DNA of 64,000 bases from an uncultured Candidatus Binatia bacterium (GCA_965219905.1 CBDCOS010000002.1:2076625-2140624), one strand, 5' to 3'. Positions 41,202-64,000 are shown, counted from the first letter of the stretch. Notes: generated by a model from the letters alone, not told the origin. Numbers and translations are program-made.

Positions 41202-41204
41202 TTC

Positions 41205-43685: not shown

Positions 43686-43771
43686 GAGGAGGAGCCGTCA
43701 TCGCCACCCATCGCCTGACAGAGCTACCGGCGTGGCAGGACCTCGCCGAGCACTACCGCAAGATCAAGGAC

Positions 43772-45328: not shown

Positions 45329-45403
45329 CGTGTTGTCCCATGCAATCGGTGACCAGGATGCGCAGGATATGTTCCCGCCGGCACTAGATGAGCGAGGGCC
45401 GCG

Positions 45404-46549: not shown

Positions 46550-46571
46550 CCGGGGGCAAAGGAGTTGCGCC

Positions 46572-47750: not shown

Positions 47751-47767
47751 GGGCAGGTCCTGCGTCC

Positions 47768-48511
47768 ATGGACCGGTTGCAAGAGCAGCGCGAGTTGGTG
47801 GCCCTGTCCTCGCGGATCCTGGGCAAGCTCGACCTCACCAAGAGTACCAGCGGACACGTGAGCGCCCGGGTTCCGGGCACCGACACTTTCCTCATCCGCG
47901 CCCGCGGCCCGGCCGAGACAGGGGTGCGTTACACGGGGCCGGGCGACGTCATCCTCGTGGACCGGGACGGCCAGAAGATCGAGGGATCGGACGCCCTCGA
48001 CCCGCCCCAGGAAGTCTACATACACAGTTGGCTCTACCGGAGCCGCGACGACGTCAACAGCGTCATCCACATCCACCCGGCCACCGTCGTGCTCTTCACC
48101 ATCTGCCGGAAGCCCCTGCTGCCCATCTACGGCGCCTACGACCCCACCAGCATCCGGCTCCTGATGCAGGGCATACCCGAGTACGAACGCAGCATCACCG
48201 TGTCCAATGACGAGCTGGGAGAGGAGTTCGCCGGGGTCATGGGCGACAAGCCCGCCTGCCTCATGCGCAGCCACGGCATCACCACCGCCGGCCCGACGGT
48301 CCAGGAGGCCACCATCACCGCCATCAAACTCAACGAGCTGGCCGAGATGAACTACCGCGCGGCACTGCTGGGAACGCCGCACCCCATCCCCGACGAAGAG
48401 ATCGCCATCATCACCCGCACGAAGCGCAAGCGCGGCAACGCCACCGAGTCCTCGTGGCGCTACTACCGCACGCTGGCGGGCGAGGAGGACCCGGTTGAAC
48501 CAACCTATTGA
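47768..48511 (+). CDS. class II aldolase/adducin family protein
   Basis: 247 aa; TSGHVSARVP, HIHP, MRSHG zinc-ligand histidines typical of fuculose-phosphate-aldolase fold. Confidence 0.75.
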   Translation: MDRLQEQRELVALSSRILGKLDLTKSTSGHVSARVPGTDTFLIRARGPAETGVRYTGPGDVILVDRDGQKIEGSDALDPPQEVYIHSWLYRSRDDVNSVIHIHPATVVLFTICRKPLLPIYGAYDPTSIRLLMQGIPEYERSITVSNDELGEEFAGVMGDKPACLMRSHGITTAGPTVQEATITAIKLNELAEMNYRAALLGTPHPIPDEEIAIITRTKRKRGNATESSWRYYRTLAGEEDPVEPTY

Positions 48512-48536
48512 TCTTCCTCGCGGGCGAAGCTAGATT
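48508..48536 (+). promoter_or_regulatory. candidate sigma70 promoter TTGATC-N17-TAGATT overlapping aldolase stop codon
   Basis: Good hexamers and spacing; followed by a structured about 70-nt leader. Confidence 0.4.
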
Positions 48537-48548
48537 GTCCGCAATACC

Positions 48549-48601
48549 CCCTGCGGTTTCGACCGCAGGGCGCGGGGCCTCTTCGGAGGCCCTTGCTTTT
48601 T
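48549..48601 (+). terminator. leader hairpins: CCTGCGGT-ttcg-ACCGCAGG then GGGCCTC-ttcg-GAGGCCC followed by TTGCTTTTT (intrinsic terminator/attenuator)
   Basis: Canonical GC-stem plus U-tract terminator 13 nt before the NYN gene start. Confidence 0.6.
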
Positions 48602-48613
48602 CGGCGGCCATTG

Positions 48614-49243
48614 ATGCGCACGTATGTCTATGTAGACGGGTTCAATCTCTACTACGGAGCAGTCAAAGGATCGTCATGGAAGTGGCTGGACCTCGTCGCA
48701 TTGTTCGAGAACGTGCTCCAGCCGCATCACGATGTCCTCGCAATCAAGTATTTCACAGCAAGAGTTTCGGGGACTGTCGTGGACCCATCAAAGCCGCAGC
48801 GTCAGGATGTCTATCTGCGAGCGCTACGGCAATACCGGCCCCAGATTGAAGTGTACTTCGGTCACTTCCTGAGTCATGCGGTGCGTGCCCCGCTCGCGCA
48901 CCCGGTCGGGAACCGCCGGACCGCCGAGGTGATCAGGACCGAGGAGAAGGGCTCGGACGTTAATCTCGCGGTGCATCTGCTCAACGACGGCTGGCTGGAC
49001 GCCTACGATTGCGCCGTCGTCGTCACCAACGACAGCGACATCGCCGAAGCAATGCGTCTGGTTAGACCGCATCACGGCAAACGGATCGGACTCGTGACGC
49101 CGGGAAACGTCAAGCCATCGCGGCAGCTCATGGTGCATGCGGACTTCACTAGACACATCCGGCCCAACGCCCTGGAGCGCTCTCAACTGCCGGACCCCTA
49201 TCCCCGGCACCAATATCCGGAAACCGGCGAGTTGGTAGCTTGA
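48614..49243 (+). CDS. NYN domain protein (LabA-like predicted RNase)
   Basis: 209 aa from MRTYVYVDGFNLYYG; conserved NYN acidic residues (VDGFN, KGSDVNLAVHLLNDG, VVTNDSD). Confidence 0.7.
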   Translation: MRTYVYVDGFNLYYGAVKGSSWKWLDLVALFENVLQPHHDVLAIKYFTARVSGTVVDPSKPQRQDVYLRALRQYRPQIEVYFGHFLSHAVRAPLAHPVGNRRTAEVIRTEEKGSDVNLAVHLLNDGWLDAYDCAVVVTNDSDIAEAMRLVRPHHGKRIGLVTPGNVKPSRQLMVHADFTRHIRPNALERSQLPDPYPRHQYPETGELVA

Positions 49244-49283
49244 AGACCGAAATGCATAAGAAAGCCAGAAAGGATCCGTTGGC

Positions 49284-50246
49284 ATGAGCACACCTGAACC
49301 CATCCGCATCCGTGGCATCTACCGCTCCCCGACCCACCTCCCCATCTGGGAGGTCCTGGACAAGGCCGGCATCTGGCAAGAAGTCGGCATCGAGGTCACG
49401 AGCTTCGAGTTCAACAACAGCTCGGCCACCACCGAGAAGGCACTGTTCTCCGGCGAGATCGATTTCGTGTCCGGGAACCACATCTCGCCCTACGCACTGG
49501 TGGCGGAGGGAAAGCCCATCGTCTCCATCGCGTCGCCCGGCAACAGCGTCAACGACCGCCTCATCTCCCGCAAGCCCGTCCAGTCCCTGGCCGAGATCGA
49601 GGGTGGCCGCCTGGGCGATACCGCCATCCGTGACTCGGCGGGCGGCTACCACCATCCCCGCGGCAACCACATGCTGTACATCATGCGTGCGGGTCTGACC
49701 CTGGACGACGTGGAATGGGTCAAGCTGGCCGAGGACACCCACGCGTTGCGCGACGTACTGCCGGGCGCCTTCGAGGCCGGAGAGATCGATGCGGCGCTGG
49801 TGACCGGCAACACCGATGTCTACGAAGAGGCCGGCCTTCACGTGCTGCCGCTGGAGCCCCTGCCCATGATCAACGGCCCCACCATCACCACCGGAATGAA
49901 CGTGCTGCGGGAACGGCCCGGGCTGGGAGAGCGGCTGGTGAAGGCCATGGTCATGGGGATCCACTACGCCAAGACGCACCGCGCCGAGACCGAGGCGATG
50001 CTCGCCGATCTCAAGGAGCGCATCCCCGCGTCCGGAGGCCGCTACAACAGCGTCACCAAGCTCGCCTCCAAACCCTATCCCGACATCCGGGGCGTCGCCA
50101 ACGCCTACACGCTGTGCTGCATGGACGCACCCAAGGCGGAAGAGTTGAGCCCCATGTCGCTGTGGGACCTGCACTACCTCCGGGACCTGGACGACTCGGG
50201 CTTCATCGACGAGCTGTACGCGGCCGAACCCATTCCCGGAAACTGA
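49284..50246 (+). CDS. NMT1/THI5/SsuA-like (periplasmic-binding-protein type 2 fold) protein without signal peptide
   Basis: 320 aa; SsuA/NMT1-like fold; hydrophilic N-terminus MSTPEPIRIRG. Confidence 0.55.
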   Translation: MSTPEPIRIRGIYRSPTHLPIWEVLDKAGIWQEVGIEVTSFEFNNSSATTEKALFSGEIDFVSGNHISPYALVAEGKPIVSIASPGNSVNDRLISRKPVQSLAEIEGGRLGDTAIRDSAGGYHHPRGNHMLYIMRAGLTLDDVEWVKLAEDTHALRDVLPGAFEAGEIDAALVTGNTDVYEEAGLHVLPLEPLPMINGPTITTGMNVLRERPGLGERLVKAMVMGIHYAKTHRAETEAMLADLKERIPASGGRYNSVTKLASKPYPDIRGVANAYTLCCMDAPKAEELSPMSLWDLHYLRDLDDSGFIDELYAAEPIPGN

Positions 50247-50276
50247 CGCCTTTAGGGCCGCAGGGGATCCCGGTCC

Positions 50277-51779
50277 ATGCCATTTGAGAAACCGACGCTC
50301 GACCAGATTCGCGCCGTCGCGGACGATCTCGGCATCGATCTGTCCGACGACGAGCTGGCCGGGTATCTCGAGCGGATGGAGGGGTTCTCCCGCGCCTATG
50401 CGCTGGTGGACGAAACGCCGGACCCGGGGCCTCGAGTTCGCGGACGCACTTGGCGCCGGCCGGCGCCGGACCTGAACCGCTACAACGCCTGGTTCGTGAA
50501 GACCTCCATCCGGGAAGAGTACCGCGGCCGGCTCGCGGGCAAGACCCTGGCCGTGAAGGACCCCATCAGCGTGGCAGGGTTGCCGACGATGAACGGCGCC
50601 TCGTTCCTGGAAGGCTACGTGCCCGACGTCGACGCCACCGTGGTCACCCGAGCGCTCCATGCCGGCGCCGAGATCATCGGCAAGACCAACTGCGAATACC
50701 TCTCCCTTTCGGGCGGGAGCCATACCGGCGCCAACGGGCCGGTCATCAACCCGCTCAAGGCCGGCTACTCGGCGGGCGGTTCGTCATCCGGCAGCGCCGT
50801 GGCCGTGGCCACGGGCGACGCCGACATGGCCCTGGGCTGCGACCAGGCCGGTTCCATCCGCGTACCCGCGGCCTGGTGCGGCATCGTCGGCCTCAAGCCC
50901 AGCCATGGCCTCGTCCCCTACACCGGCATACTCGGCGTGGATTCGGCCGTGGACCACTGCGGCCCCATGACACGCGACGTGCACGACAACGCCCTGCTGC
51001 TGGAGGTGCTGGCCGGACGCGACGGCATGGACCCGCGCCAGCCAAGCTCGTGGCAACCGGTGAAGTACACTGCCGCGCGACGCGCCGGCGCAAAGCGCTT
51101 GCGCGTAGCCGTCATCAAGGAAGGCTTCGGACAGCGCAACGCGGAAGCCGAAGTGGATGAGCGCGTCCGGGCCGCCGCCGACGTGATCGCCAACCTGGGC
51201 CTCCATTTGGCAGAGGTCTCGGTGCCCGTTCACGAGAGGGCATGGCTGCTGGGCCAGCCCATATATGTCGAAGGCCTGGCCCAGTCCATGGGCGAAAGCG
51301 GCATCATGCCCGACGCCGAAGGTCTCGGCTCCCCGAGCGCGGCGGAACATTTCTCAGCCTGGCGCCGACGCTGGCGGGAACTGCCCGAGAGCTTGATGAC
51401 CCTCATCCTGTTCGGCGGATTCGTGCGCGGCCGTCACCCCGGTCGTTACTATGTCAAGGCACAGCACCTGCGCCGCACCATCCGCCGGGCCTACGAGGAC
51501 ATATTCTCCGAATACGACCTGATGCTCATGCCCACCACGCCCATGGCAGCCACGCCACTACCCGGACCGGACACGAGAGCTGCCGAACGCTCCCGCCGAG
51601 CCGGCGAGATGCTGGCCAACACCGGTCCCTTCAACGTCACCGGCCACCCGGCCATCTCCCTGCCGTGCGGCGCCACCGCCGACGGGCGGCCGGTGGGAAT
51701 GATGCTGGTGGGGCGACACTTCGACGAGATTACGCTTTATCGGGCGGCGTATGCGTTTGAGCGCACAGGCCGAGGGTGA
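50277..51779 (+). CDS. amidase (amidase-signature family)
   Basis: 500 aa; GGSSSGSAVAVA signature, Ser-cisSer-Lys region (AVKDPISVAG ... GGSSSG). Confidence 0.85.
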   Translation: MPFEKPTLDQIRAVADDLGIDLSDDELAGYLERMEGFSRAYALVDETPDPGPRVRGRTWRRPAPDLNRYNAWFVKTSIREEYRGRLAGKTLAVKDPISVAGLPTMNGASFLEGYVPDVDATVVTRALHAGAEIIGKTNCEYLSLSGGSHTGANGPVINPLKAGYSAGGSSSGSAVAVATGDADMALGCDQAGSIRVPAAWCGIVGLKPSHGLVPYTGILGVDSAVDHCGPMTRDVHDNALLLEVLAGRDGMDPRQPSSWQPVKYTAARRAGAKRLRVAVIKEGFGQRNAEAEVDERVRAAADVIANLGLHLAEVSVPVHERAWLLGQPIYVEGLAQSMGESGIMPDAEGLGSPSAAEHFSAWRRRWRELPESLMTLILFGGFVRGRHPGRYYVKAQHLRRTIRRAYEDIFSEYDLMLMPTTPMAATPLPGPDTRAAERSRRAGEMLANTGPFNVTGHPAISLPCGATADGRPVGMMLVGRHFDEITLYRAAYAFERTGRG

Positions 51780-51879: not shown

Positions 51880-52878
51880 CTACGCCTCGAACCGGCTGAA
51901 CACCTTCTCCGCATTCCCTCCCAGGATCCCCGCCTTCTCCTCGTCGCTCAGCCAGTCCATCTCCTCGATGAGCGACTTGACGTCGTCGTACCAGCGGCCG
52001 GTGCGGGGGTTGGGCTTGGAGCCGGCGCCGGGGCGTTCACTGCCGAAAAGGCAGCGGTCGGGCGTGGCGACCTTGAAGAGCAGCTCCAGGGATTCGGTGT
52101 TGTAGAGGGCTGAGTCGAAGTAGAGCTGGCGCAGGCGGTCGTCGAAGTTCTCGGTGTTGTTGGGGCCGCGGAGTTGGGAGCGCCAGCGTCCCACCTGGTA
52201 GGGGACCGATCCGCCGCCGTGGGAGACGATGAGCTTCAGGCCCGGGAAGTCGGTGAAGACGTTGGAGTTCAGCAGCGAGAGGATAGCGATGCTTTCCTCG
52301 GTGATGAAGTGGCCGTGGAACGATTCCCGCTGGTTCCGGCAACCCGCGGGATGGACCAGGCCCGGGATGTCCATGGCCGCCATCTTCTCGTAAAGGGGAT
52401 ACCAGTACTCGTCGCCCATGCCGGGGGTGAGCCCGTCCCCTTCCCCGGGGTCGGGGTTGATCATGATGCCCACCATGCCCAGGTCGTTGATGCAACGGTC
52501 GATCTCCTCGAACGTATTCTCGGGGCCGACGCCGGCGTTCTGCGGCAGTCCGGCGATGCCGCGGAACCGGGTGGGCTCGACCTTGACCTGGAGCGCGATG
52601 GCGTCGTTGACGGCCTCGCAGTACCAGCGGACGATCTTTTCGGGCTTCTCGGAATGCATCATGGTGTAGGGTCGGGGCGAGATGAACGCCATGTCGGTGC
52701 CCACCTGGTCCAGCACCTCGGTGTGCTTGTGCCCGTTCCAGGTGGCCGTCCTGATGCTTTCCTCGGTGACGGGGGACTTGCGCTTGCCGTGGAAGCCGCG
52801 GCTGTTGATGAGGCTGGCCTGGTAGCGGCTGAGCTCCTCGCCGGCGACGATGTGGTTGTGGATGTCGATGATCACTAG
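51880..52878 (-). CDS. amidohydrolase-2 family protein (ACMSD-like; fourth paralog)
   Basis: 332 aa from GTG (V)IIDIHNHIV with AGGAGA RBS; HxH motif; the 424-aa track ORF N-terminus not supported. Confidence 0.7.
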   Translation of the reverse strand, partial: LVIIDIHNHIVAGEELSRYQASLINSRGFHGKRKSPVTEESIRTATWNGHKHTEVLDQVGTDMAFISPRPYTMMHSEKPEKIVRWYCEAVNDAIALQVKVEPTRFRGIAGLPQNAGVGPENTFEEIDRCINDLGMVGIMINPDPGEGDGLTPGMGDEYWYPLYEKMAAMDIPGLVHPAGCRNQRESFHGHFITEESIAILSLLNSNVFTDFPGLKLIVSHGGGSVPYQVGRWRSQLRGPNNTENFDDRLRQLYFDSALYNTESLELLFKVATPDRCLFGSERPGAGSKPNPRTGRWYDDVKSLIEEMDWLSDEEKAGILGGNAEKVFSRFEA

Positions 52879-53093
52879 CTGTCTCCTGCTCGTTTGGAAT
52901 TGAGAGAGGCCGGGGAACGACCCCGTTTCGTGGCACGCGAGTCGTCTTGCACCGGCAACAAGTTGTATGCTGTAGTTGTTGACCGTATTGTCGTATTGGC
53001 TGGCACGGTCGGCCCCCGTCCGGTTGCCCGACGACGGATTGTACAGGAGAAAGGTCGGCGGGGCCACTGGCCACGATTTCCACGAGGCATACG

Positions 53094-54152
53094 ATGCGCT
53101 ACATGCTGCTCGGCAATCTGTTCGCGCTGGTTCCCGCGCTGCTACCGGCCGCACCCACGGACGCTCTCGCGCAGAGTTGGCGGGGAATCACCGAAGCCGA
53201 AAACAGGATCGTGTTCGCGGGAAGTCAACTGGAAGATTACCGCGCGTTGCATCATTACCATCCCTTCGACGAGAGCCCCAACTCGCATGAGCACTACAAG
53301 TCTCAATGGAAAGCCGGCTCCCGGCGACTTCCGGTCCTTTGGGTCGACCTGTATATTGCGCCTCCCACCCGTTACTTCTCCGCCAGCCGGCAGCGAAGTC
53401 TCGAACAGTATGCCAAGCTGTTCGGGTGGTTCAAGGACAAGCCCTTCTCGACGGTTGAGACCGGCACCGCGGGGACGGCGGTGGGGCCGGCTGATTTTCT
53501 GGTTTTCACGGCGGACAGGGACCGATGCGGAGCGTTTTGGCTCTACCTCGATGAGGGAGTGGTCAGCAATCCCGACAGTCTCGGCAACATCCGTTTGAGT
53601 GGTTTCTACTGCCCGGTTTCCGGTCAAGTCGATGCCGGAACCCTCAAGTCCCTTCTCTCCAACATGGGCGTCCGAGGCATCGCTGTTCCGAAGGTGGAAG
53701 GGCTCCAGGTCGCACGGAGGCCGGCTTCGGAGCGCCCCTCCATGGACTCACTCACCACGCTCGTGACGACCGGCGACATCAAGGGGCTGCGCAGGGTCGC
53801 GGCCAAGGACTTCGATCCGGATACCATTATCCCCTTTCAGCATCCGCGTTTTGCGCGCGGCCGCGTCATAAGAAGGCCAATGCTCGTGGCGGCGGCCCTT
53901 TTCGGCCGGACGGAGATGGTCGTGTTCCTGCTGAACAAGGGCGCTTCCACCCGTGGACGTTCCGCCGGAGCCATCTGTGCCGCGATTTCAAGGGGGCACC
54001 CCGATATCGTCGAGGTGCTTCTCAAGAAGGATCCGGAACTGAGGGATTATGATCGCTGTGGCCGACGCGGAACGATGTCGGCCATCAGATTGGCCAGGAG
54101 GCTCGATCGTCGGGAGATTCTCGAAAAGCTTCTCGGAACGAATGCCCGGTGA
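53094..54152 (+). CDS. secreted ankyrin-repeat protein
   Basis: Signal peptide MRYMLLGNLFALVPALLPAAPTDALA; C-terminal ANK repeats (GRTEMVVFLLNKGAS, GHPDIVEVLLKK). Confidence 0.6.
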   Translation: MRYMLLGNLFALVPALLPAAPTDALAQSWRGITEAENRIVFAGSQLEDYRALHHYHPFDESPNSHEHYKSQWKAGSRRLPVLWVDLYIAPPTRYFSASRQRSLEQYAKLFGWFKDKPFSTVETGTAGTAVGPADFLVFTADRDRCGAFWLYLDEGVVSNPDSLGNIRLSGFYCPVSGQVDAGTLKSLLSNMGVRGIAVPKVEGLQVARRPASERPSMDSLTTLVTTGDIKGLRRVAAKDFDPDTIIPFQHPRFARGRVIRRPMLVAAALFGRTEMVVFLLNKGASTRGRSAGAICAAISRGHPDIVEVLLKKDPELRDYDRCGRRGTMSAIRLARRLDRREILEKLLGTNAR

Positions 54153-54254
54153 CGCAGCCGCCGCCGTGTCCCGGGGCCGTACCAGCGCACCGGGAAACCT
54201 CTTCCGAGGCGGATTTTTTCTCGTGCGATAGCTTCCGTCGGCCTTGTTGCGGCC

Positions 54255-56119
54255 ATGGCGCTGGGGGGCTGTCGTGACGCCACGGCCGACCGCGAACTCC
54301 ATGCGCCGCCCCCGGCAAGGGCGCATGCGCTATCATACGACGGCACGAAGATGATCGCCCTGAACGATCACGAGGGCGGCGCATTCTTCGACATCGTGGG
54401 AACCGCTTCGGGCCGGTCTTTCGGGCTCCTGGCGCATTCCTTCATTCAAGCTGTTTGGGGCGAAAGCAGCGACATCGCTTACGCGGTCGACAAGGAGAAG
54501 CAAGTATACCGCGTGTCGCTAAGCGGCAATGCCGCAAGGATCGACAAGGTCGCGCTCACCCGACCGGAAGCCGTTCCGGCGGACGAAGCGCCGCGCGTCC
54601 TCCGTTTCCCGTCTCCGAGGCTCCCTTTCTCCTTGCCAGCTCTTCGCGCCAGCCGCAGCGGCTCTATCGCTGCGATTTGAGCCCGGGCTCCGGCGAACAG
54701 AACCTGGAGACTCGATGCCAGGTCTTGATCGAAGACGGTACGGGCGTCCTGTACTGGCTCACGACGGCGAAGGGGCGTGTCGTCGCAAGGATCAAGGTAT
54801 CGACCGCCGGGCGCCGCGTGTTCCAATCGCTGACATCGTCGGGGGAATGGGCCTCGCTGTTCGACTATATTCCGTACTACACCGAGTTGGTGCCTATCCA
54901 GTTCGTGCAGCAAGACGGCACGGTGTGGGCACTCTCCAACCGGCAGCGCGAGAGGGTGGCGCTGGTCCGGCTGAATATCGAGACCGGACGGGAAGAGGTC
55001 TTTTTTCAGCATGACCGCCATGATCTGACGAAGGCGGTTGTCCATTTCGACAAGGACGGCGAGGGCACCCCCTTGCTGGTTTCCTACAACCCGGACTACC
55101 AGGCAGTCGTGCACTTTCACGACGGGCTCCGGGCCGCATACGAGGCTCTGTACGAGAAAGTCGGCCGACCCTCTCGCATAGATTTCGGAAGCACGGACTG
55201 GATGGCGAAATCCGTCGTCGTCGAGGTAGCCAACCCGCGACTCCATCGCAGTTGGCACCTCCTCGATCTCGAGAAGAATACGTCCCGGGAATTGTCAGCC
55301 AGCGCTCTCGCGTCGTACCCTCATCCGCCGTCCCCCTCGCGGCCGGTTACGTTTCCGGCGCGTGACGGGCTGAAGCTCCACGGCTACCTGACGTTGCCGC
55401 AGGACCCCGAAACGCCCGGTCCCGCCCCGATGATTCTCATGCTCCACGGCGGTCCGTGGAACCGGTATTTCTGGCCGGCCTCTTCGCTGGTCCAGTTTTT
55501 CGCCAGCAAGGGCTACGCGGTTCTCAGGCTGAACTTTCGCGGATCCAGCGGTTACGACAGGAGTTTCCTCGCCGCGGGGAAGGGGGCGTTGTTCGGGAGC
55601 ATGCAGCACGACGTGCTGGATGCGGCCGAATGGGCCATAACGAACGGGCACGCCGCACGCGACCGGATCGTGCTGTTTGGCTATAGTTTCGGAGGATTTC
55701 TGACGCTCGTGATGCTGACACATCATCCTGACAGCTTCAGGGCGGGAATCGCAATCAATGGCATCGCCGATGCGGTCGATTTCTGGAAAACCGACTGGCT
55801 GATCCCCCGCCGCCGCGCACTTTGGCGTGAATTCCTCGGCAGCCGTGATTTGCCCGTGTTGGCGCTATCCGAAATTTCGCCGATCAATAACACCGATCGA
55901 ATCACCGCGGCGGTCCAGTTGATCGCGGGAGCCCGAGACAAGCGGGTTCCGGTGGCGCAATCCCAGGAGATGTTTCATCTGCTGAAGGAGGGGGGCAAAC
56001 CGGTGGAACTGGTCGAGTTTGCACAGGCCACTCACAGCATCCCGACAACGCCCCATGTCGTCTCCTCGATCGAGGCTTTTCTCGAGAAACACGTGAGCAC
56101 CAGAACGGAGACGCCGTAG
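54255..56119 (+). CDS. S9 family serine peptidase (prolyl oligopeptidase/dipeptidyl-aminopeptidase-like), reading frame interrupted by an apparent frameshift near 54600-54640
   Basis: N-terminal part in frame of ORF 54255..54680, then beta-propeller plus alpha/beta hydrolase domain in frame of ORF 54455..56119 (LYRCDLSPGSGEQ, GYSFGG nucleophile elbow); lipobox LGGC encoded just upstream of first ATG. Confidence 0.6.
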
Positions 56120-56176
56120 CGGCTCGTATGTCGCTACCGGGACCCTCGGCGTCTGTTCTCTCCACTTGCAACCGTC

Positions 56177-57283
56177 TCAAGCAGTCCCTGCGATGGCGTG
56201 GCAGCGTTCCGGCGGGACGTGAACCGCCACCGTCTCGCCCACCGTCAGTATGGTGGAGGGGTGCACCTTGATGCGCATGTCCAGATCCGGCAGCGCCACG
56301 GTGCAGTCCAGCATCTCGCCCACGAAAACCACGGAGTTGACCTCGCCGCGGACGACGTTGTCCGGGTTCTCCGCCTCGTCCGCTTGAACCACCCCGTCTT
56401 CCGGGCGAATCATCAGGGACACCTGATCCCCGGAGCGGAGGCCCGGAGACAGGGTGCTGGTAAAAGCGCCCACGGCCGTCGCCACCCGGCCCATGTGGCC
56501 ATCACCGACGGACTCGATGCGGCCCGGGATCAGGTTGGCGACGCCGATGAACTGGGCCACGAACTGGCCCGAGGGGTGCTTGTAGATCTCCAGCGGCGAG
56601 TCTTCCTGCATGATCTCGCCGAGGCTCATGACCGAGACCCGGTCGGCCATGGTGAGGGCTTCCAACTGGTCGTGGGTGACGTAGATGCTGGTGATGTTGA
56701 GCCGCTTGGTGATCTCGCGGATCTGGACGCGCATCTCCTCCCGGAGCTTGGCATCGAGGTTGCTCAGCGGCTCATCCAACAGCAACACGCCGGGCTCCCG
56801 CACCAGCGCCCGGGCCAGGGCCACCCGCTGCTGCTGACCGCCGCTCAGGAACGGCGCCGGACGGTCGGCCAGATCCTGGAGCTGGGTCAACTCCAGCGCC
56901 CGCATCACCCGCTCCCGCACCTCCCGGCGCGGCGGCCGGCTCCCCTGCCCGTGCACCAGCGGGAACGAGACGTTGTGGAACACGTCCATGTGCGGCCAGA
57001 TGGCGTAGGACTGGAACACGATGCCGAAGTCCCGCTTGGCCGGCGGCACGTTGATGCCGTCCGCGTCGGAGAATACCACCTGGTCGCCGATCTGGATCAT
57101 GCCGCCGGTGGGCTCCTCGAAACCCGCGATGCAGCGCAGGGTCGTGCTCTTGCCGCACCCGGACGGGCCCAGCAAGACGTAGAACTCCCCTTCCTCGACC
57201 TGGAAATCAATCCCCGACAGCGCGCGCACGGCGTCTCGTTCCGCGGTTTCGTAGACCTTCTCCAGACTGCTGACTCGTATCAT
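56177..57283 (-). CDS. ABC transporter ATP-binding protein, PotA/FbpC-like with C-terminal TOBE domain
   Basis: 368 aa; Walker A GPSGCGKST, signature LSGGQQQRVALARAL, Walker B LLLDEPLSNLD. Confidence 0.85.
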   Translation of the reverse strand: MIRVSSLEKVYETAERDAVRALSGIDFQVEEGEFYVLLGPSGCGKSTTLRCIAGFEEPTGGMIQIGDQVVFSDADGINVPPAKRDFGIVFQSYAIWPHMDVFHNVSFPLVHGQGSRPPRREVRERVMRALELTQLQDLADRPAPFLSGGQQQRVALARALVREPGVLLLDEPLSNLDAKLREEMRVQIREITKRLNITSIYVTHDQLEALTMADRVSVMSLGEIMQEDSPLEIYKHPSGQFVAQFIGVANLIPGRIESVGDGHMGRVATAVGAFTSTLSPGLRSGDQVSLMIRPEDGVVQADEAENPDNVVRGEVNSVVFVGEMLDCTVALPDLDMRIKVHPSTILTVGETVAVHVPPERCHAIAGTA

Positions 57284-57424
57284 TTGTAGAATCCGCGGCA
57301 GCCACGAGCCGGCTGATCATAATGGGTCTCGTTAATCATGACCCTCCTTGCGCCCGCGCGGCGCGTCCGCCCGCCGGTCCGGGGTTCGATCTCCCCCCAC
57401 GCATCGGACCTGGTCGACCTTGCC

Positions 57425-58405
57425 TCACCCCAACGGCACGTCGAGAAACGCGATGAAGGACACCAGCCCGACGAGGGTCACGAAGGTGGCTCCGGCGTAG
57501 TTCAGCGTGGTGTGCAGGACGGCGACGCCCCGGCTACTCCCGGACCGTTCCATGAACCGCGTGGCAGCCTGCCTTGCGAGAATGGCTCCGACTCCCACCA
57601 CGCAGATCGACAGGCCGATGCCGAGCGACATCGCGCCCACGAGCATGAATCCCGGATAGATCATGTCGTTGGCCACCGCGTACAGCATGATCAGTACGGC
57701 TCCCGGGCAGGGGACCATGCCCGCCGCCAGGGCCAAGAGGCCGCCTTCGAGGTTGCCGCCGTCGCCGGGACCGTGATCGTGACCGTGATCGCCGCCAGGA
57801 CCCGCACCATGGCTGTGCGAATCCTCACGACCGTGGTCATGTCCGTCACCGACCGTGACGCCGGAGACCGTACTCCCTGACGTCCGCGCGGCCTGGTACA
57901 GCATGTACAAGCCTATCCCGACGATGATCAGAAAGCTCGCGGCCCGTACGCCGGGCACCTCGGAAAGTCCGATCCCGAAGCCGGCCTTGAGGACAATGTC
58001 CGCCAGCCAGACGATGAGGATGGCCGCGATGACGTGGACGATGGCGACCTGCAAGGCCATCACCACGCCGCGAGCCACCCGCGCTTCCCGGCCCAGGAAG
58101 TACGAGACGATGATGAACTTCCCGTGTCCCGGGCCGAACGCGTGGAAGATGCCATAGGCAAACGCAATGGCGAGGCCGAGGAAGAATGCCCGGAGGTCAT
58201 CACCGCGCTCGATAGCCTTCATGTAGGTCGCGATCTCGGCGTTGGCGCGGCGCTGGAACGCCTTGATGGTTTCGGTGAACGTCGCGAACGTACTGCGGTC
58301 GTCCTCGACGATCTCAATTTCCGGAGTCATGCCCGTCGTCTGGGAAGTCACGGGCTGCGCGGCGGGCAGGATCGCGAGCAATCCGATCACCGTCAGCACC
58401 GGCAA
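57425..58405 (-). CDS. nickel/cobalt efflux permease, NicO/RcnA-like, with His-rich loop
   Basis: 326 aa, TTG start; HAFGPGHGK (RcnA HxxxPGHxK motif), His-rich loop HDHGREDSHSHGAGPGGDHGHDHG, MVPCPGAVLIML (cf. RcnA LIPCPAAITVLL). Confidence 0.75.
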   Translation of the reverse strand: MPVLTVIGLLAILPAAQPVTSQTTGMTPEIEIVEDDRSTFATFTETIKAFQRRANAEIATYMKAIERGDDLRAFFLGLAIAFAYGIFHAFGPGHGKFIIVSYFLGREARVARGVVMALQVAIVHVIAAILIVWLADIVLKAGFGIGLSEVPGVRAASFLIIVGIGLYMLYQAARTSGSTVSGVTVGDGHDHGREDSHSHGAGPGGDHGHDHGPGDGGNLEGGLLALAAGMVPCPGAVLIMLYAVANDMIYPGFMLVGAMSLGIGLSICVVGVGAILARQAATRFMERSGSSRGVAVLHTTLNYAGATFVTLVGLVSFIAFLDVPLG

Positions 58406-58409
58406 CGCG

Positions 58410-60392
58410 ATTGCGGTAGGGACGCCGGTTGCCCGGCGCCCCCCGCGCAGATCCGGACGTGCCCGCTAAGGCATCCGGCTCCTCCCTCGGGTTACGCCGT
58501 CACCCGCGATGACGGCAAATCGTTCGCTCGGCCACGGGTGTCTGATTTTCAGCTTGGGCCAGTGTCGCGCTCTTAGTTGCGCGATCCTGGCCCACTCGAA
58601 GCGGTCCTTTTGCGACCTGCGGCGCAGAATGGAGAGCCACATCCGCTCTAGACGTAGGACGAAGCGATACAGGTACCGGGAGGTCATTGGGACAGCGTAA
58701 TAGTTCAGCCATCCATCCAACACCCTTCCCAGCCATCTCGCCGTGTCCCCGACATTCTCATGCCTTCGTCTGCGTAGTGCCTCCTTGATCCGCTTCAGTG
58801 TCCGGCTCATCCGTTTCGCAACCGGCTTGCGTGCGACCTGAAAGTACCCCCGTCTGGTTCTCGCGCAGTAGTGCGTGAATCCCAGGAAGTCGAAGGTCTC
58901 CGGTCTGCCGTCCCCTCGTTGCCGACGGTCATTCATGGCAGACCGCCCGAACTCGATGAGCCGGGTCTTGTCGGGATGCAATTCCAGTTCGAAGCTTCCG
59001 AACCGCTCCTTCACGGCACTCAGGAAGCGCTCCGCGTCCCGCTTGTGCTGAAAACCCACCACGACGTCGTCGGCGTACCGCAGGATGACGGTGTCGCCTT
59101 TGACCTCGCGGCTGCGCCACTTCTTCTGGAACCACAGGTCGAGGACGTAGTGCAGGTAGACGTTCGCCAAGACCGGTGAAACCACCGAGCCTTGAGGCGT
59201 TCCCCGCAGATTGTCCCGCCACTCTCCAGCTTCCATGACGCCGGCGTTCAACCACTTGATGATGAGCCTGATGACCCGCTTGTCCGCGATGCGGTGTTCC
59301 AGGAACCGGATCAGCCAGTCCCTTGACACGTTGTCGAAGAATGCGTGGATGTCACAGTCCACCACCCAGTTGATCTTGCGCCGTTCGATACCGACCGTGA
59401 GTGCGTCGAGTGCATTATGCGCTCCACGCCCGGGCCGGAACCCGTAGCTGAACCCCAGGAACTCCGCCTCATATATAGGCGTCAGGATTGTCTCCGTCAC
59501 CGCCTTCTGGACTATCTTGTCCTCGATGGCCGCGACGCCGAGCGGTCGTGTGCCGCCATCAGGCTTCGGAATGTTCACCCGCCGTGATGGCGTCGCCCGG
59601 TACGCTCCCGAGTGCACGCGGTCGTGAAGGTCGGCCAGGCGGCCTTCCAGCCCTTCCTCGTACATCCGCCACGTCATGCCGTCCGCGCCTGCCGCAGCGT
59701 CTTTCTTCAATTCGAAGAATGCCCAGCGCAGCGCATCGACTGTGACGTGGTGAAGAAGCGCCGTCAGACGCTCCCGTGGTTCCCGTTGAACGAATTGCCG
59801 TATCCGGTCAGCCGCCTGTGTCACGCTTTCCCGGTCCTGCGCCCGGCGCGTGCTTTGGCTTCCCGGATTCCCCTTGGGCTCGGTCCTTCGCTCCATCGAC
59901 TCCGCCGGAACCGAAGTCCCTTTGTTCGCCGACTTCTCAGCTAATATGACCGAGTCTGACTTCTCCATGCCGTACATCATCGGTTACGGTTTCCCTTTCC
60001 TTTGCGATCCCGCCACGACAGCGGGATGGCATGGAGACCTCCCAGGTCCCGGTGCAGTGCGTACGTACGTGCATGGGTTCTTCGACACCGCGGGATTCCG
60101 GCCCCCCTCACCATATCGGTGGACCGGATACGGCCTTCGGTTGAAGGCAACACCTCGGCATCCCGGATGATCCTTTCTCGGTGCTCAATAGCCCCGCCCG
60201 CACGCGCCCCTGTCAACGCTTGACCTCCGCCCTCACGAGCGGTTGCCCATGACTCGGGGTGGAAGTGGTGGCTAGCCTTCTCCTTCCCGCCGGACTTTCA
60301 CCGGCTGCACTGCACCAGTTAGCCTGGCGCTCGCCCGCCTCGGACTTCGGTTCCTGAGCGGCTGTCCGGCGACCACGGTTCACGCTCCGCAC
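58410..60392 (-). mobile_element. group II intron (ORF-containing, about 1983 nt) inserted at the DUF1007/NicO gene junction
   Basis: 5' GUGCG at 60392; EBS1 UUGAGC (rc of 60186-60191) complementary to upstream exon end GCUCAA; domain V GAGCCGGAUGCC-UUAG-CGGGCACGUCCGGAUC (58481-58450); domain VI with GCAA tetraloop and bulged A 7 nt from 3' end ...CGCAAU (58410). Confidence 0.75.
58466..59980 (-). CDS. group II intron-encoded protein (reverse transcriptase/maturase, no obvious En domain)
   Basis: 504 aa; MMYGMEKSDSVILAEKSANKG N-terminus, RT motifs incl. YADD (RYADDVVVGF), maturase X-like C region; stop codon lies within domain V. Confidence 0.85.
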   Translation of the reverse strand: MMYGMEKSDSVILAEKSANKGTSVPAESMERRTEPKGNPGSQSTRRAQDRESVTQAADRIRQFVQREPRERLTALLHHVTVDALRWAFFELKKDAAAGADGMTWRMYEEGLEGRLADLHDRVHSGAYRATPSRRVNIPKPDGGTRPLGVAAIEDKIVQKAVTETILTPIYEAEFLGFSYGFRPGRGAHNALDALTVGIERRKINWVVDCDIHAFFDNVSRDWLIRFLEHRIADKRVIRLIIKWLNAGVMEAGEWRDNLRGTPQGSVVSPVLANVYLHYVLDLWFQKKWRSREVKGDTVILRYADDVVVGFQHKRDAERFLSAVKERFGSFELELHPDKTRLIEFGRSAMNDRRQRGDGRPETFDFLGFTHYCARTRRGYFQVARKPVAKRMSRTLKRIKEALRRRRHENVGDTARWLGRVLDGWLNYYAVPMTSRYLYRFVLRLERMWLSILRRRSQKDRFEWARIAQLRARHWPKLKIRHPWPSERFAVIAGDGVTRGRSRMP

Positions 60393-60970
60393 TTGAGCGT
60401 AACGGGCCGGGGATGGCCGGCCTGCTCGCCCTTGCCGCGCCCGACCCGAAACTTGCAACCCGGCTTCAGCGCGCCCATCACCCTCAGGAACCTCGACGGG
60501 GCGAAGCCGAAGTCCACCTCGTTCTTGTGATCCAGCAGACTGACGACTACGGGATCTTCACCCGGGTCGGCGGGCGGTGCGACCGGCACGGAGAAATCGA
60601 TGACGAGCCGTTTCTCCACGATCCTCGCCGTGAAGCGATCGATCTCGTGGCCCTCGCGTTTTCCCCCTCCCGCCCACACGTGCACGTGGTAGTCGGACTC
60701 GCCCAGCGGATCGAACATGCCGGCACGGAGCGCCCGCATCTCCGAGCGCACCAAGAAGCCGTCGCCGTCCCGGTCGTAGGACCGGATGGCATGAGAGCTG
60801 TAGTATTCGTCGAACCGCCACGTGAACGCGAGCCCCTTGACCCGGTGGTCCTCCAGCTCGAACGTCATCCACGCCTCGACCCACACGTGAGGATTGGCGC
60901 GCGCCGGCGGCGGCGCCAGTGAGAGGGCGATAAGCAGTGCGGGCAGAATTGTGGTGACGACGTGCAGCAT
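60380..60970 (-). CDS. DUF1007 family periplasmic protein (COG3683; usual partner of NicO/RcnA-type permeases)
   Basis: 196 aa from MLHVVTTILPALLIALSLAPPPARA (signal peptide); alternative start MKGHMPNPRT at about 61002; stop codon TGA lies inside the intron 5' end. Confidence 0.6.
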   Translation of the reverse strand: MLHVVTTILPALLIALSLAPPPARANPHVWVEAWMTFELEDHRVKGLAFTWRFDEYYSSHAIRSYDRDGDGFLVRSEMRALRAGMFDPLGESDYHVHVWAGGGKREGHEIDRFTARIVEKRLVIDFSVPVAPPADPGEDPVVVSLLDHKNEVDFGFAPSRFLRVMGALKPGCKFRVGRGKGEQAGHPRPVTLKCGA

Positions 60971-61017
60971 CGTTCTAGGATTCGGCATGTGACCTTTCAT
61001 GTCAACACGACGGGAGG

Positions 61018-62775
61018 CTACAGCTCGCGCCCTCCCGCCACGCTCCCGCCCAGCCGCCGGGCGAGGACGCTCAAGGCCGTCACCGCCACCACCAGCAGCA
61101 CGGAGAGCGCCGACGAGGTCCCAGGGTTGCCCGTGTCCCACAGGTGCCAGAGGTAGACCGACAGCACCATGCTGTCGGGACCGCGCAGCAGCATGGCGAT
61201 GGACATGACCTTGAAGCTCAGGATCAGGACGAAGAGGAAGCCGTTCACCAGCGCCGGCAGCAGCAGCGGGAACCAGACGAACCGGAGCGTGGTCCAGAAG
61301 CCGGCGCCGCTGCCCCAGGCGGCCTCTTCCAGCTCCTTGTGGACCTGCACCACGGCCGCGTTGGTGAAGCGGGTGCCGATGGGCAGGTAGTTGACGATGT
61401 AGGCCAGCACGATGATCCAGATGGTGTTGTAGAGCGGGTTGGGGAACGACAGGAACACCACCAGGAAGGCGACGCCGATGACCATCCCCGAGACCGCGTA
61501 GGGCAGGAACACCACCACGTCCAGCACCTTCCGGCCGGTGATGTTCGTGCGGTACACGAACCACGAGCACAGGATCGCCAGGAACATGATGGCGATGCTG
61601 CTGATGCCTCCCAGCAAGATCGTGTTGCCGGCGACGTTCAGGAGCGCGGGGGAGGCGAACAGCTCCCAGTAGTTCTCCAGGCTCACGGCCGACAACGCCT
61701 TGAGCGAGGGCGGCCGGTAGTAGGGCAGCAGCGAGCTCCACACGAGGATCAGGAGCGGCAGCACGGCGGCGAAGACGAAGTAGAAGCCGGCGAAGCCCCA
61801 GGCGGGCCACACCCATTTGCCGAGGGGCACCACTCTCGGCCGGTAGCCCTTGCCCACCACCACCGTGTAGCGCTCGGAGTGCCGGAGTTGGCGCTGGTAG
61901 AACAGGATGGCGATCAGGGTCACCACCACCAGGGTCATGCTGTAGGCGAACCCCAGGCCGTAGTCCGGCGGGAAGGCGCCCCGGATCGAGTAGTAGATGG
62001 TGGTGCTGAACACGAAGATGCCCGAGCTGAAGCCCAGGAGCATGGGGATCTCGAAGGCCTCGATGCCGCGCACGAAGAGAAGGATGGCCACTCCCGCCAA
62101 ACCCGGCTTGAGGAGCGGCAGCAGCACCTTGGAGAAGGTGGTCCAGGTGGACGCGCCGCTCCCCAGGGCGGCCTCCTCCAGGGACGGGTCCATGCGCCGG
62201 ATGGTGCCGGCGATGAGCAGAAACGCCAGCGGGCTCATGCTCACGCCCTCGACCCAGATCATGGCCGGCAGGGAGTACGCGCTGAGGATCGGGCCGTCGA
62301 GCCCGAGCCAGCGGCCGAACTGGTTGATGAGGCCGATGCGCGGCGAAAGGAGGAAGATCCACGCGATCCCCTTGACCACCGACGGCATGATCAGCGGGAT
62401 CATCACCATCATGGGGATCGCGTCGCGCCAGCGCATGTCCGTGCGTTCCGCGAGGAACGCCAGGACGCCGCCCATGCACATGGCCAGGATCATGGAGCCG
62501 ATGGCGAACCACAGCGAGTTGAGCAGCATCCGGAAGGTGGCCGGGCTGCTGTAGGCCTCGATGTAGTTGTTCAGGGTCAGCCCCGTGAGACTGAACCCGA
62601 GGTCGCCGATCGAGGCGGCACGAAAGCTGTTGACGACCAGCAGGCCCAGCGGCACCACGACGAGAACGCCGATGACGGCGGCGATGCTCCAGAAGGCCAC
62701 CAACCGGAGATCGACGGCAGGACCCCGGGAGGGCCTTGCGCTGCGCGTGTCGCGCTTGACCGCGGCGCTGTTCAT
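61018..62775 (-). CDS. ABC transporter permease, fused double-domain (FbpB/PotBC-like iron(III)/polyamine type)
   Basis: About 585 aa; two tandem permease domains each with EAA-like loop (LEEAALGSGAS..., LEEAAWGSGAG...). Confidence 0.8.
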   Translation of the reverse strand: MNSAAVKRDTRSARPSRGPAVDLRLVAFWSIAAVIGVLVVVPLGLLVVNSFRAASIGDLGFSLTGLTLNNYIEAYSSPATFRMLLNSLWFAIGSMILAMCMGGVLAFLAERTDMRWRDAIPMMVMIPLIMPSVVKGIAWIFLLSPRIGLINQFGRWLGLDGPILSAYSLPAMIWVEGVSMSPLAFLLIAGTIRRMDPSLEEAALGSGASTWTTFSKVLLPLLKPGLAGVAILLFVRGIEAFEIPMLLGFSSGIFVFSTTIYYSIRGAFPPDYGLGFAYSMTLVVVTLIAILFYQRQLRHSERYTVVVGKGYRPRVVPLGKWVWPAWGFAGFYFVFAAVLPLLILVWSSLLPYYRPPSLKALSAVSLENYWELFASPALLNVAGNTILLGGISSIAIMFLAILCSWFVYRTNITGRKVLDVVVFLPYAVSGMVIGVAFLVVFLSFPNPLYNTIWIIVLAYIVNYLPIGTRFTNAAVVQVHKELEEAAWGSGAGFWTTLRFVWFPLLLPALVNGFLFVLILSFKVMSIAMLLRGPDSMVLSVYLWHLWDTGNPGTSSALSVLLVVAVTALSVLARRLGGSVAGGREL

Positions 62776-62823
62776 GGCTCGACCGGCGGGCCGTGCACCC
62801 CACACGGCCCGCGCGCTACGAGG

Positions 62824-63900
62824 CTACTTGATGCCGAGCAGCCTGAAGAAGAAGTCCTCGGACTTCTTCAGCACGTCCGGCGTGTAGATTTTCGCCGCGG
62901 TATCCGGCTCCACCAGCGCCGCCTTGTCCGCGGTGGCGCCGCCGTCCACCAGGAGCTTGGCCAGCTTGCCGGACTTGGCGTGCTTGTTGACCACGACCTT
63001 GGCGCTCACCACCTGAGTGTACTCGTACTGGCCCTCAGGGGACATGAGGTAGTCGATGAGGAGCCAGGAGCCCGCCGGATTCGGCGCGTCCTTCATGATC
63101 GCATAGGAGCGGAAGGTCATGGGGAACTTCGGGAAGGAGATCATCGCGATGGGCGCACCCTTGGCCTTGAGCCTGGCGTAGGGGCCCAGGGCCGGGAACC
63201 AGAATATGCCCACGTCCCCGGCGGCCACGCGCTTGGTGCCGCCGGAATAGCCGCGGCCGATGGCGGGTTTCTGGTTCTTGACCATCTTGGTGAAGAAATC
63301 GAAGCTCTTCTCCCAGTTGAGCTTTTCGGCGCTGCCCCAGATCCACGCCAGCCGGGAGGGAAACTCTTCGCTGGAACGCGACAGCAGGGCCAGTCCCTTG
63401 TACTTGGCCGAGATCATGTCGTCCCAGTTCTTGGGCGCGTCCTCGGGCTTGACCAAGTCGGTGTTGTAGATGCCCTGGACCCGCGGGTTCATGAAGCCGT
63501 CGACGTACAGCCCGTGCCTGGGCTGGGTGTTGCCGAGCATGTCCTTCATGTGCGGGTAGTCGTAGCCCTTGAGCAGCCCCTTCTGCGCCAGCGACTCGGT
63601 GCCGCTCTCGTCCACCCCCACCATGTCGATGGTGAGCTTGCCGGCCTTGGCCTCCGTCACCACCCGGTTGATGGTCGCCGAGGTGTTGGCGTCGAACGCC
63701 TTGACCTTGAGCCACGGATACTTCTTGCGGAATCCCTTGAGCTTGTCCCGGAACTCCCCGGCGTTGCTGCCGGCCACCACGAACGCCCCTTCCTTCTTGG
63801 CCTTCTCGATCATCTTGGCGCGGAGGTCGTCCATCGCGAGGGCGGAGCCCGCGAACGCGACGAGCGCTACCAGACTGGTGAATGCCAACAGTTTCTTCAT
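62824..63900 (-). CDS. ABC transporter substrate-binding protein (PotD/FbpA-like, SBP family 1)
   Basis: RBS CCAAGGAGG then ATG; signal peptide MKKLLAFTSLVALVAFAGSALA. Confidence 0.75.
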   Translation of the reverse strand: MKKLLAFTSLVALVAFAGSALAMDDLRAKMIEKAKKEGAFVVAGSNAGEFRDKLKGFRKKYPWLKVKAFDANTSATINRVVTEAKAGKLTIDMVGVDESGTESLAQKGLLKGYDYPHMKDMLGNTQPRHGLYVDGFMNPRVQGIYNTDLVKPEDAPKNWDDMISAKYKGLALLSRSSEEFPSRLAWIWGSAEKLNWEKSFDFFTKMVKNQKPAIGRGYSGGTKRVAAGDVGIFWFPALGPYARLKAKGAPIAMISFPKFPMTFRSYAIMKDAPNPAGSWLLIDYLMSPEGQYEYTQVVSAKVVVNKHAKSGKLAKLLVDGGATADKAALVEPDTAAKIYTPDVLKKSEDFFFRLLGIK

Positions 63901-64000
63901 TGTGTCCTCCTTGGATAGGTTCTGTTGTGACTCTACGTTCAATCGCACGGCACCTGCCGCTCCAGCAACACCTCGCGGTTCTCGGCCGAGGACTCGATCA

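Follow-up and report, generated by a model that had tools for sequence, protein, structure and literature searches.

Why should the ATPase of an ATP-binding cassette (ABC) importer be encoded 3.7 kb away from the permease that it serves, with a DUF1007-NicO gene pair and a group II intron in between? The question is raised by a 64,000-nt stretch of DNA (the window, referred to at its full length) from an uncultured Candidatus Binatia bacterium (GCA_965219905.1 CBDCOS010000002.1:2076625-2140624). An open reading frame (ORF) listing combined with Pfam confirmed the six-gene order that an earlier note on this DNA had described on the minus strand: substrate-binding protein (SBP), fused permease, DUF1007, group II intron, NicO and ABC ATPase. 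The earlier note left the choice between a composite metal (Ni/Co or chelate) transporter and a recent insertion of the DUF1007-NicO pair, hereafter the cassette, into the operon. The results presented here favor, with a probability that we put at roughly 80 %, a translocation, specific to one lineage, by which an autonomous cassette that probably transports metal entered the ABC operon; on this reading the arrangement is an evolutionary accident and not a composite transporter.

Position and origin of the DUF1007-NicO cassette

A scan with a NicO alignment, covering one genome per species, returned 80 loci, all from metagenome-assembled genomes (MAGs); the neighbor genes in the loci were found by tblastn with the window proteins. 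DUF1007 lies immediately upstream of NicO and on the same strand in 60/80 loci, in agreement with the earlier statement that the two genes normally form a stand-alone unit. The cassette is located inside the ABC operon considered here in only four of the loci (L002, L003, L006 and L010), to which contig L001 and the window are added. The records with this embedded order are labelled Candidatus Binatia or Deltaproteobacteria, two of them (L006 and L010) come from complete chromosomes, and the distance from NicO to the ATPase gene ranges from 30 nt to 4 kb.

Homologous operons are also present without the cassette. In L089 the order is cupin-UbiD-GFO/IDH/MocA-SBP-permease-ATPase-Amidohydro_2, with a permease 94 % and an ATPase 89 % identical to those of the window, a 258-nt spacer between permease and ATPase, and no DUF1007 or NicO. 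Uninterrupted operons were likewise found in L090 and L091 (permease 89 % identical), L083 (84 %) and L082 (76 %). The embedded loci are homologous to L089 as far as the permease stop codon, and then again from about 15-25 nt ahead of the ATG of the ATPase gene. The ATPase itself is 89-95 % identical across relatives, whether the cassette is present or not, and is directly followed by the Amidohydro_2 gene in L002, L010 and L089. A neighbor-joining (NJ) tree of the ABC genes groups the embedded loci and places L089 outside this group, with weak bootstrap values.

In sister genomes, the cassette is found next to pst genes. The order is pstA-pstB-DUF1007-NicO followed by the pyruvate carboxylase gene (pyc) in L005 and L007, and by a vapBC stretch of ~770 nt, an S9 peptidase gene and an ankyrin protein gene in L004 and L009. 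This conserved 770-nt element had been a candidate for a mobile element or an RNA and was rejected as such, as it consists of a vapB (RHH, 79 aa)-vapC (PIN, 140 aa) gene pair directly 3' of NicO (L004 11231-11927; also in L009, L006 and L003, and in part in L002). The same genes are found between NicO and the ATPase gene in embedded loci. L002 carries a full pyc gene (1154 aa, 11114-14578) and part of vapBC, and its ATPase gene, although 5.6 kb from the permease gene, is still intact and 95 % identical; L006 carries a pyc stub and vapBC, and in L003 vapBC is split by about 1 kb with an exported 310-aa protein. In the window, the NicO-ATPase spacer (57284-57424, 141 nt) comprises NicO-pyc intergenic sequence, six pyc codons and then ATPase upstream sequence, as seen in an alignment with L002, L005 and L006 at the NicO-pyc junction. 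Such pyc stubs are retained in the window, L001, L003 and L006. The G+C content at third codon positions (GC3) is 0.83-0.84 for the cassette vs 0.90-0.96 for the ABC genes. In an NJ tree of the cassette, the window copy groups with the pyc-type copies of the pst locus, with a bootstrap value of only 8-10 %, and L004/L008/L009/L011 form a separate clade with 99 % support. As each complete chromosome with the embedded order has one NicO locus in the scan, translocation fits better than duplication. Combined, the uninterrupted relatives, the presence of the cassette at the pst locus of sister genomes and the baggage of the donor locus bear out the idea of a recent insertion into the operon.

We propose that an ABC importer operon consisting of SBP, fused permease and ATPase pre-existed in a catabolic cluster and likely served an organic substrate. 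In a small clade of uncultured bacteria, entered in the records under names such as Candidatus Binatia or Deltaproteobacteria, a chromosomal segment next to pstAB would have been translocated into the permease-ATPase spacer, carrying a promoter/operator, DUF1007, NicO, pyruvate carboxylase and the vapBC toxin-antitoxin pair. The window lineage would later have deleted pyc and vapBC, leaving an 18-nt pyc stub, and in a last step a group II intron would have retrotransposed into NicO at codon 15/16, at a site that matches its exon-binding site 1 (EBS1) imperfectly. DUF1007-NicO would have stayed an autonomous two-gene secondary metal transporter with its own operator-controlled promoter, in which DUF1007 may bind metal in the periplasm and feed the NicO membrane permease with its His-rich loop; the ABC system and DUF1007-NicO would function independently of each other. 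The features on which this scheme is built are listed in Table 1.

Table 1. Features of the window, in the order in which the minus-strand operon is read, followed by the genes beyond it
Feature	Position	Strand	Basis or remark
SBP, ABC importer substrate-binding protein, 358 aa	62824-63900	minus	Pfam SBP_bac_8/1/6
Fused two-domain ABC permease, 585 aa	61018-62775	minus	Pfam BPD_transp_1 x2
Putative cassette promoter/operator TTGACATGAAAGGTCACATGCCGAATCCT	60977-61005	minus	diverged form of tandem palindrome TTGACATGTCA-NN-TGACATGTCA
DUF1007 protein, 196 aa	60380-60970	minus	PF06226; gene call from L001
EF-hand-type loop DRDGDGFLVRSE within DUF1007	60740-60775 (residues 66-77 of 196)	minus	motif DxDxDGxhxxxE
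NicO exon 1, GTG start, codons 1-15 (MVAGQPLRNRSPRRA)	60333-60376	minus	intron-less homolog P0001; L001 alignment
Group II intron, 1923 nt, 5'-GAGCGCC...CCGCAAU-3'	58410-60332	minus, operon's own orientation	L001 alignment; Rfam
EBS1 GCCUUC, domain I loop	60143-60148	minus	alignment A3
Intron-encoded reverse transcriptase/maturase, 504 aa	58466-59980	minus	Pfam RVT_1 + GIIM
Intron domain V	58450-58481	minus	Rfam alignment, RNA fold, three relatives
Intron domain VI	58410-58449	minus	Rfam alignment, RNA fold, three relatives
NicO exon 2, codons 16-342	57425-58409	minus	PF03824
pyc stub (ATGATTAACGAGACCCAT), 18 nt, first six pyc codons	57322-57339	minus	alignment with L002, L005, L006
ABC ATPase, 368 aa, cognate partner of the permease	56177-57283	minus	Pfam ABC_tran + TOBE_2
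S9 peptidase gene	54255-56119	plus	frameshifted; second block of likely donor-locus origin
Ankyrin-repeat protein gene	53094-54152	plus	same block as S9 peptidase
Amidohydro_2 gene	51880-53154	minus	beyond the S9 peptidase/ankyrin block from the ATPase

The group II intron within NicO

The limits of the intron are given by L001, a 43.5-kb contig that is 99.95 % identical to the window over 64000-60333 and 99.6 % identical over 58409-52544. L001 lacks exactly 60332-58410 and is otherwise continuous across the junction. Because the bases at the two junctions differ, the placement of the intron is unambiguous, and because the near-identical contig is continuous without it, NicO is split after codon 15. 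The intron had been placed between the DUF1007 and NicO genes, with NicO starting at a TTG at 58405; it lies instead inside the NicO ORF, and the intron-less L001 reveals the actual start as GTG 60376, 4 nt past the stop codon of DUF1007. NicO is thus a protein of 342 aa encoded by exon 1 (60376-60333) and exon 2 (58409-57425). P0001, an intron-less NicO also of 342 aa, begins MVAGQPLRNRSPRRAALPVLTV, and a search with a conceptual DUF1007-NicO fusion revealed that its N-terminus MVAGQPLRNRSPRRA is encoded 5' of the intron in the window. Exon 2 is undamaged, with a single substitution relative to the intron-less L001 allele. Annotation pipelines would mis-call NicO because it is split by the intron.

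Placing the 5' end of the intron at the GTGCG at 60392 (excising 60392-58410) would generate a 530-aa in-frame DUF1007-NicO fusion. This candidate was rejected because no fused homolog was present among 1041 matches and because the intron-less allele shows a genuine DUF1007 stop and a splice site at 60332/60333.

The intron carries the expected RNA and protein parts. Domains I to IV match Rfam RF02005 with 165 bits at 60076-60298 (cut-off 49), and domains V and VI match RF00029 at 58410-58483 with 33.9 bits, which is below the cut-off of 40, in a region that aligns with three relatives; domain VI has a bulged A located 8 nt from the intron 3' end. The intron-encoded protein (IEP) matches TIGR04416 at 362 bits vs a cut-off of 300, its YADD motif is intact at 59066-59077, and no endonuclease domain was detected in a Pfam scan of it. 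The nearest annotated relatives of the IEP, ~58 % identical, are found on plasmids of Skermanella, Cupriavidus, Sinorhizobium and Burkholderia, and the intron alignments took in relatives from Skermanella, Sinorhizobium and Burkholderia. The 5' G(U/A)GCGCC, domains V and VI and the 3' end CCGC(A/G)AY are conserved with these three relatives. The usual 5' end of a group II intron is GUGYG. An A replaces the U at intron position 2 (GAGCG) in two of the four aligned members, the window (60332-60328) and L087 (a Skermanella plasmid). Given that the 5' G(U/A)GCGCC is conserved among the relatives and that Skermanella also has GAGCG, this 5' end is a lineage variant. Neither the window nor any of the loci fetched contained a second copy of the intron, and no record with the exact IEP sequence was found.

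The window intron resembles the plasmid introns of Sinorhizobium, Skermanella, Burkholderia and Cupriavidus in its endonuclease-less reverse transcriptase, and the position of the EBS1 loop is shared with the aligned plasmid relatives. It differs from them in residing in a chromosomal protein-coding gene, in an imperfect pairing between EBS1 and the intron-binding site 1 (IBS1), and in being polymorphic between near-identical strains. Between EBS1 GCCUUC and GCGGGC, the 3'-terminal 6 nt of exon 1, Watson-Crick pairs account for four positions, a G-U pair for one and a mismatch for one (5/6), whereas in each of the three relatives the homologous loop is 6/6 complementary to its own 5' exon. The empty allele of L001 differs by two substitutions in 3.7 kb on one side of the intron; because this allele is nearly identical, the insertion must be very recent. 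From these sequence comparisons, we read the intron as the product of an ectopic retrotransposition into NicO at codon 15/16. It provides a natural example of a group II intron that has just inserted in a protein-coding gene of the chromosome, and the empty allele, at >99.6 % identity, is at hand for comparison.

Because the intron interrupts the NicO ORF, full-length NicO would require splicing; in the unspliced reading, the frame of exon 1 stops 19 codons into the intron. Group II introns are self-splicing and do not have to inactivate the host gene.

The cassette, its operator and the importer

The DUF1007 gene had been assigned a start at 61002. The actual start is ATG 60970, giving a protein of 196 aa as called in L001, and the segment 60977-61005 is non-coding; its sequence makes it a putative promoter/operator carried by the cassette. 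It begins 12 nt past the permease stop codon and is the sole match within the window. Among the Binatia-type loci examined, L009 alone lacks the block GTGTTGACATGAAGGGTCACATGCCGAATCCT...ATG upstream of DUF1007; embedded and pst-locus copies both have it. Upstream of alpha- and gammaproteobacterial DUF1007 genes, the corresponding sequence is a tandem palindrome TTGACATGTCA-NN-TGACATGTCA-TAA with a 12-nt period, to which the window operator is homologous. GACATGTCA is present in 38/61 DUF1007 upstream regions, and the tandem form in 46 loci (~1.7 Mb scanned), in every case immediately before DUF1007 or, in loci without DUF1007, before NicO. The canonical palindrome is located at about 9150-9990 in each of the loci concerned (L012-L081; for instance L025 9328-9349, L023 9328-9349 and L070 9964-9985) and overlaps a TTGACA -35-like box. 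The Binatia-type operator is diverged and retains TTGACATG-N7-ACATG. A strict sigma-70 scan gave no match in window 56000-64000, window 52000-64000 and L004 8100-12000 contained no riboswitch or other RNA element beyond the intron, and the TGACATGTCA motif had no relevant match in the literature.

NicO matches the profile PF03824 at 82.1 bits (cut-off 27.7); with the RcnA subfamily model NF007454 it scores 62.5 bits, below the cut-off of 195. The signature of the NiCoT (HoxN/NixA-type) transporters is H-x4-D-H in transmembrane helix 2. HxxxxDH is absent from the NicO sequence, in which the conserved His motif is HAFGPGHGK; this motif and PCPGA are invariant (alignment A1). The His-rich loop described by the earlier note was recovered at 57755-57850, with 7 His among residues 202-233, and its length varies widely among NicO homologs. 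In one gammaproteobacterial MAG (OZ244909.1, L075), NicO (P0065) reaches 493 aa owing to an N-terminal extension of ~150 residues with T/A/Q/V-rich repeats (TAQATVQA...).

DUF1007 matches Pfam PF06226 at 95.2 bits (cut-off 27), a domain present in 120/120 DUF1007 homologs among the matches listed. A signal peptide is followed by an invariant NPHVW, by conserved HVHVW and GHP, and by two invariant Cys (alignment A2). We predict that DUF1007 is an exported, periplasmic metal-binding partner of NicO, in which the two Cys likely form a disulfide. The EF-hand-type loop of Table 1 (DxDxDGxhxxxE) is present in 55/61 DUF1007 homologs, at identities down to 31 %. Weak matches to calmodulin extend over residues 69-110 (E about 0.01-0.1), and a Pfam scan of DUF1007 gave no EF-hand domain match. 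The helix-loop-helix at residues 55-86 is the best-supported part of an AlphaFold2 model built from 52 sequences, the pLDDT of which is only 57.5. No solved homologous structure was found for DUF1007 or NicO, and we found no description of an EF-hand loop in the DUF1007 family, nor functional tests in the literature on DUF1007, COG3683 and COG2215.

The cassette resembles stand-alone units of DUF1007 (COG3683) and a NicO-like permease (COG2215), for example BP3078-BP3079 of Bordetella pertussis (PMC9858536): the families and the order are the same, the genes nearly abut (4 nt here), DUF1007 has a signal peptide, and the permease has a His-rich loop, HAFGPGHGK and PCPGA. It differs from these units in being located between an ABC permease and an ABC ATPase, in its diverged operator and in the intron interrupting NicO. 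The B. pertussis operon BP3077-BP3082 encodes a TonB-dependent receptor, a Ni/Co transporter, a DUF1007 protein and a SitABCD-like ABC system and is induced inside macrophages (PMC9858536); there the unit adjoins a metal importer, whereas the ABC system of the window is of a different type. The metal-uptake context of this operon suggests, without proving it, that DUF1007-NicO takes up metal (PMC9858536). The conserved His motifs, the EF-hand loop and the His-rich loop are further, indirect indications of a metal substrate. With the Ni/Co efflux pump RcnA of E. coli, the window NicO shares membership in Pfam NicO and a central His-rich loop; unlike RcnA, its partner is DUF1007 and not RcnB, and its direction is probably uptake and not efflux.

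The cassette is also found, independently, beside a second ABC system in 12 alphaproteobacterial MAG loci (L013, L014, L016, L018, L019, L021, L027, L033, L048, L055, L057 and L077; about 3700-9400 in each), in which two tandem ABC ATPase genes are located ~1.8 kb upstream of DUF1007-NicO. In L013, which was inspected in detail, the ATPases belong to a Dpp/Opp-type ABC system with a permease and two ATPases, followed by a GntR-family regulator.

The importer of the window shares with AfuABC, FbpABC, PhnSTUV and PotABCD an SBP_bac_8/6-type SBP, a fused permease with a double BPD_transp_1 domain and a TOBE_2 ATPase. It differs from them in that its genes score below all equivalog cut-offs, in its catabolic context and in the displacement of the ATPase gene by 3.7 kb of cassette and intron. 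The designation PotD/PotBC/PotA-like given earlier therefore holds at the superfamily level and fails for the equivalogs. Among the NCBIfam equivalogs (Pot, Phn, ferric and others), none reaches its cut-off for the ABC genes: PotA gave 312.8 (cut-off 482), PotB 81 (348) and PotC 92 (326), with no PotD match for the SBP; PhnT2 gave 327.5 (458), PhnS 34 (395) and PhnU2, the best match of the fused permease, 152 (593). The ferric ATPase model PRK11432, used as a test for FbpABC/AfuABC, gave 271 vs 496. The nearest PDB chain of the SBP is 7f6p, a distant 'iron ABC periplasmic binding protein' (E 1.5e-13), a further near chain is the pyridoxal phosphate (PLP)-binding P5PA (6wce), and characterized members of the SBP family bind iron, sugar phosphates or PLP (4r72, 6wce). 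In source annotations, 'iron(III) transport system permease' is the name given to this family of permeases.

The ABC genes belong to a cluster of catabolic enzymes (cupin, UbiD, GFO/IDH/MocA, Amidohydro_2, Rieske/LigXa_C), and in L001 the SBP gene starts 39 nt past the GFO/IDH/MocA gene. Class II aldolase, amidase, several Amidohydro_2 and dienelactone hydrolase are further catabolic neighbors in the window and its relatives. Because the neighbors are catabolic enzymes, an organic substrate is suggested as the more likely one for the importer. Window 35876-51779 is dense in catabolic-type genes, with a dienelactone hydrolase, three Amidohydro_2, Rieske/LigXa_C, GFO/IDH/MocA, class II aldolase and amidase; an NMT1-like binding protein, a phosphoglucose isomerase and a PYC_OADA/HMGL-like carboxylase subunit are also encoded there.

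All five protein-coding genes of the embedded order are under purifying selection and not in decay, with ratios of nonsynonymous to synonymous substitution rates (dN/dS) of 0.07-0.36 over SBP, permease, DUF1007, NicO and ATPase (0.27-0.33 for DUF1007, 0.16-0.36 for NicO and 0.10-0.15 for the ATPase).

Alternative readings and neighboring genes

In place of an accident, the ABC system could import a metal or metal chelate, with DUF1007 and NicO as integral accessories, a second binding protein and a channel, that share its ATPase or its regulation. The iron labels on the permease family and on the nearest PDB chains leave room for such a substrate, and the embedded order has been kept in five species-level genomes with purifying selection on every gene, which could be explained by selection for co-expression; both points also weigh against the translocation that we favor. 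DUF1007-NicO pairs moreover adjoin other ABC systems, SitABCD-like in B. pertussis BP3077-82 (PMC9858536) and Dpp/Opp-like in the 12 alphaproteobacterial loci. We nevertheless consider the composite transporter put forward by the earlier note very unlikely, since the closest relatives keep a complete, conserved ABC operon that lacks the cassette, the ABC genes have catabolic neighbors, the cassette is autonomous in most genomes (60/80 loci), and the interval between NicO and the ATPase also holds a 3.5-kb pyc gene (L002) or a toxin-antitoxin pair (L003/L006), unlike a designed operon. Members of the SBP family also bind sugar phosphates or PLP (4r72, 6wce). As far as we know, NicO-family proteins are secondary transporters without an ABC-coupling element, which also counts against a composite. 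A related and somewhat less doubtful proposal, although still an improbable one, is a regulatory rewiring in which the cassette operator, now also upstream of the ATPase gene, gates energization of the importer by the metal signal of DUF1007-NicO; if true, it would account for the persistence of the embedded arrangement in five species. Related to this is the possibility that DUF1007-NicO, with its tandem TGACATGTCA operator and its EF-hand/His partner, is an uncharacterized, widespread metal-uptake system. The metal specificity and direction of DUF1007-NicO are themselves deduced from the families to which the two proteins belong and from a single published context (PMC9858536), which weakens the metal-transport part of our scheme. 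The direction of the change could also have been the reverse, with the embedded order being ancestral and relatives such as L089, L090 and L083 having lost DUF1007-NicO by precise deletion. Since the placement of L089 outside the embedded clade is weakly supported, a single insertion is unproven against a precise loss, and the NicO-ATPase spacer is prone to deletions (pyc and vapBC were lost); set against the absence of the cassette from successive outgroups (94 %, 89 %, 84 % and 76 % permease identity), the synteny of the embedded flanks (pyc, vapBC, promoter) with the pst locus of sister genomes and the GC3 difference between cassette and ABC genes, this leaves an ancestral embedded order highly improbable. 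The position of the S9 peptidase and ankyrin genes after the ATPase is a further difficulty for the translocation, as it needs a second rearrangement.

Two other readings concern the state of the sequence in this strain. The cassette might be dead, with an intron that splices poorly from a non-cognate site and NicO a fresh pseudogene, so that the arrangement would play no physiological part in this strain, and we regard this as unlikely, though a prospect worth keeping in mind. The mismatch and the wobble pair between EBS1 and IBS1, contrasting with the perfect pairing in relatives, point in that direction, as do the end of the unspliced exon-1 frame after 19 intron codons and the frameshifts of the S9 peptidase relative to L001, which indicate that the strain or its assembly tolerates gene damage. 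Pointing the other way are the intact IEP with YADD, the intact domain V and domain VI with its bulged A, the lack of damage in exon 2, and the self-splicing of group II introns, which need not inactivate the host gene. That the locus is a chimeric misassembly of two unrelated loci is barely credible. The unusual order and the origin of all sequences from metagenome assemblies are all that recommends it, and the junctions recur in L001, L002, L003, L006 and L010, L001 being 99.6-99.95 % identical across both of them. With the order repeated in five further assemblies and purifying selection acting on each of the five genes, the embedded arrangement is not a misassembly. The earlier note had named uninterrupted homologous operons, combined with evidence of a chimera, as what would speak against its arrangement; the operons exist and the chimera does not.

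If the translocation that we favor is correct, the apparent composite metal importer is the product of a rearrangement and cautions against over-reading gene adjacency. The locus would also be a natural example of an operon interior serving as a landing pad for unrelated cargo, here pyruvate carboxylase and vapBC. For the uncharacterized DUF1007/NicO pair, handles are provided by the palindromic operator, which extends from Alpha- and Gammaproteobacteria to the Binatia type, by the EF-hand loop and by the His motifs. The most useful leads are the operator, the EF-hand loop and the pair of empty and filled intron alleles.

Beyond the ATPase, the S9 peptidase/ankyrin block (53094-56119), with a GC3 of 0.72-0.74, sits between the ATPase and Amidohydro_2 genes. 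Comparison with L001 shows that the S9 peptidase gene has lost 1, 5 and 1 nt near 54619-54714, so that its N-terminal part is in a different frame, and a further 3 nt in frame at 55532. This damage reflects either a fresh pseudogene or an assembly error.

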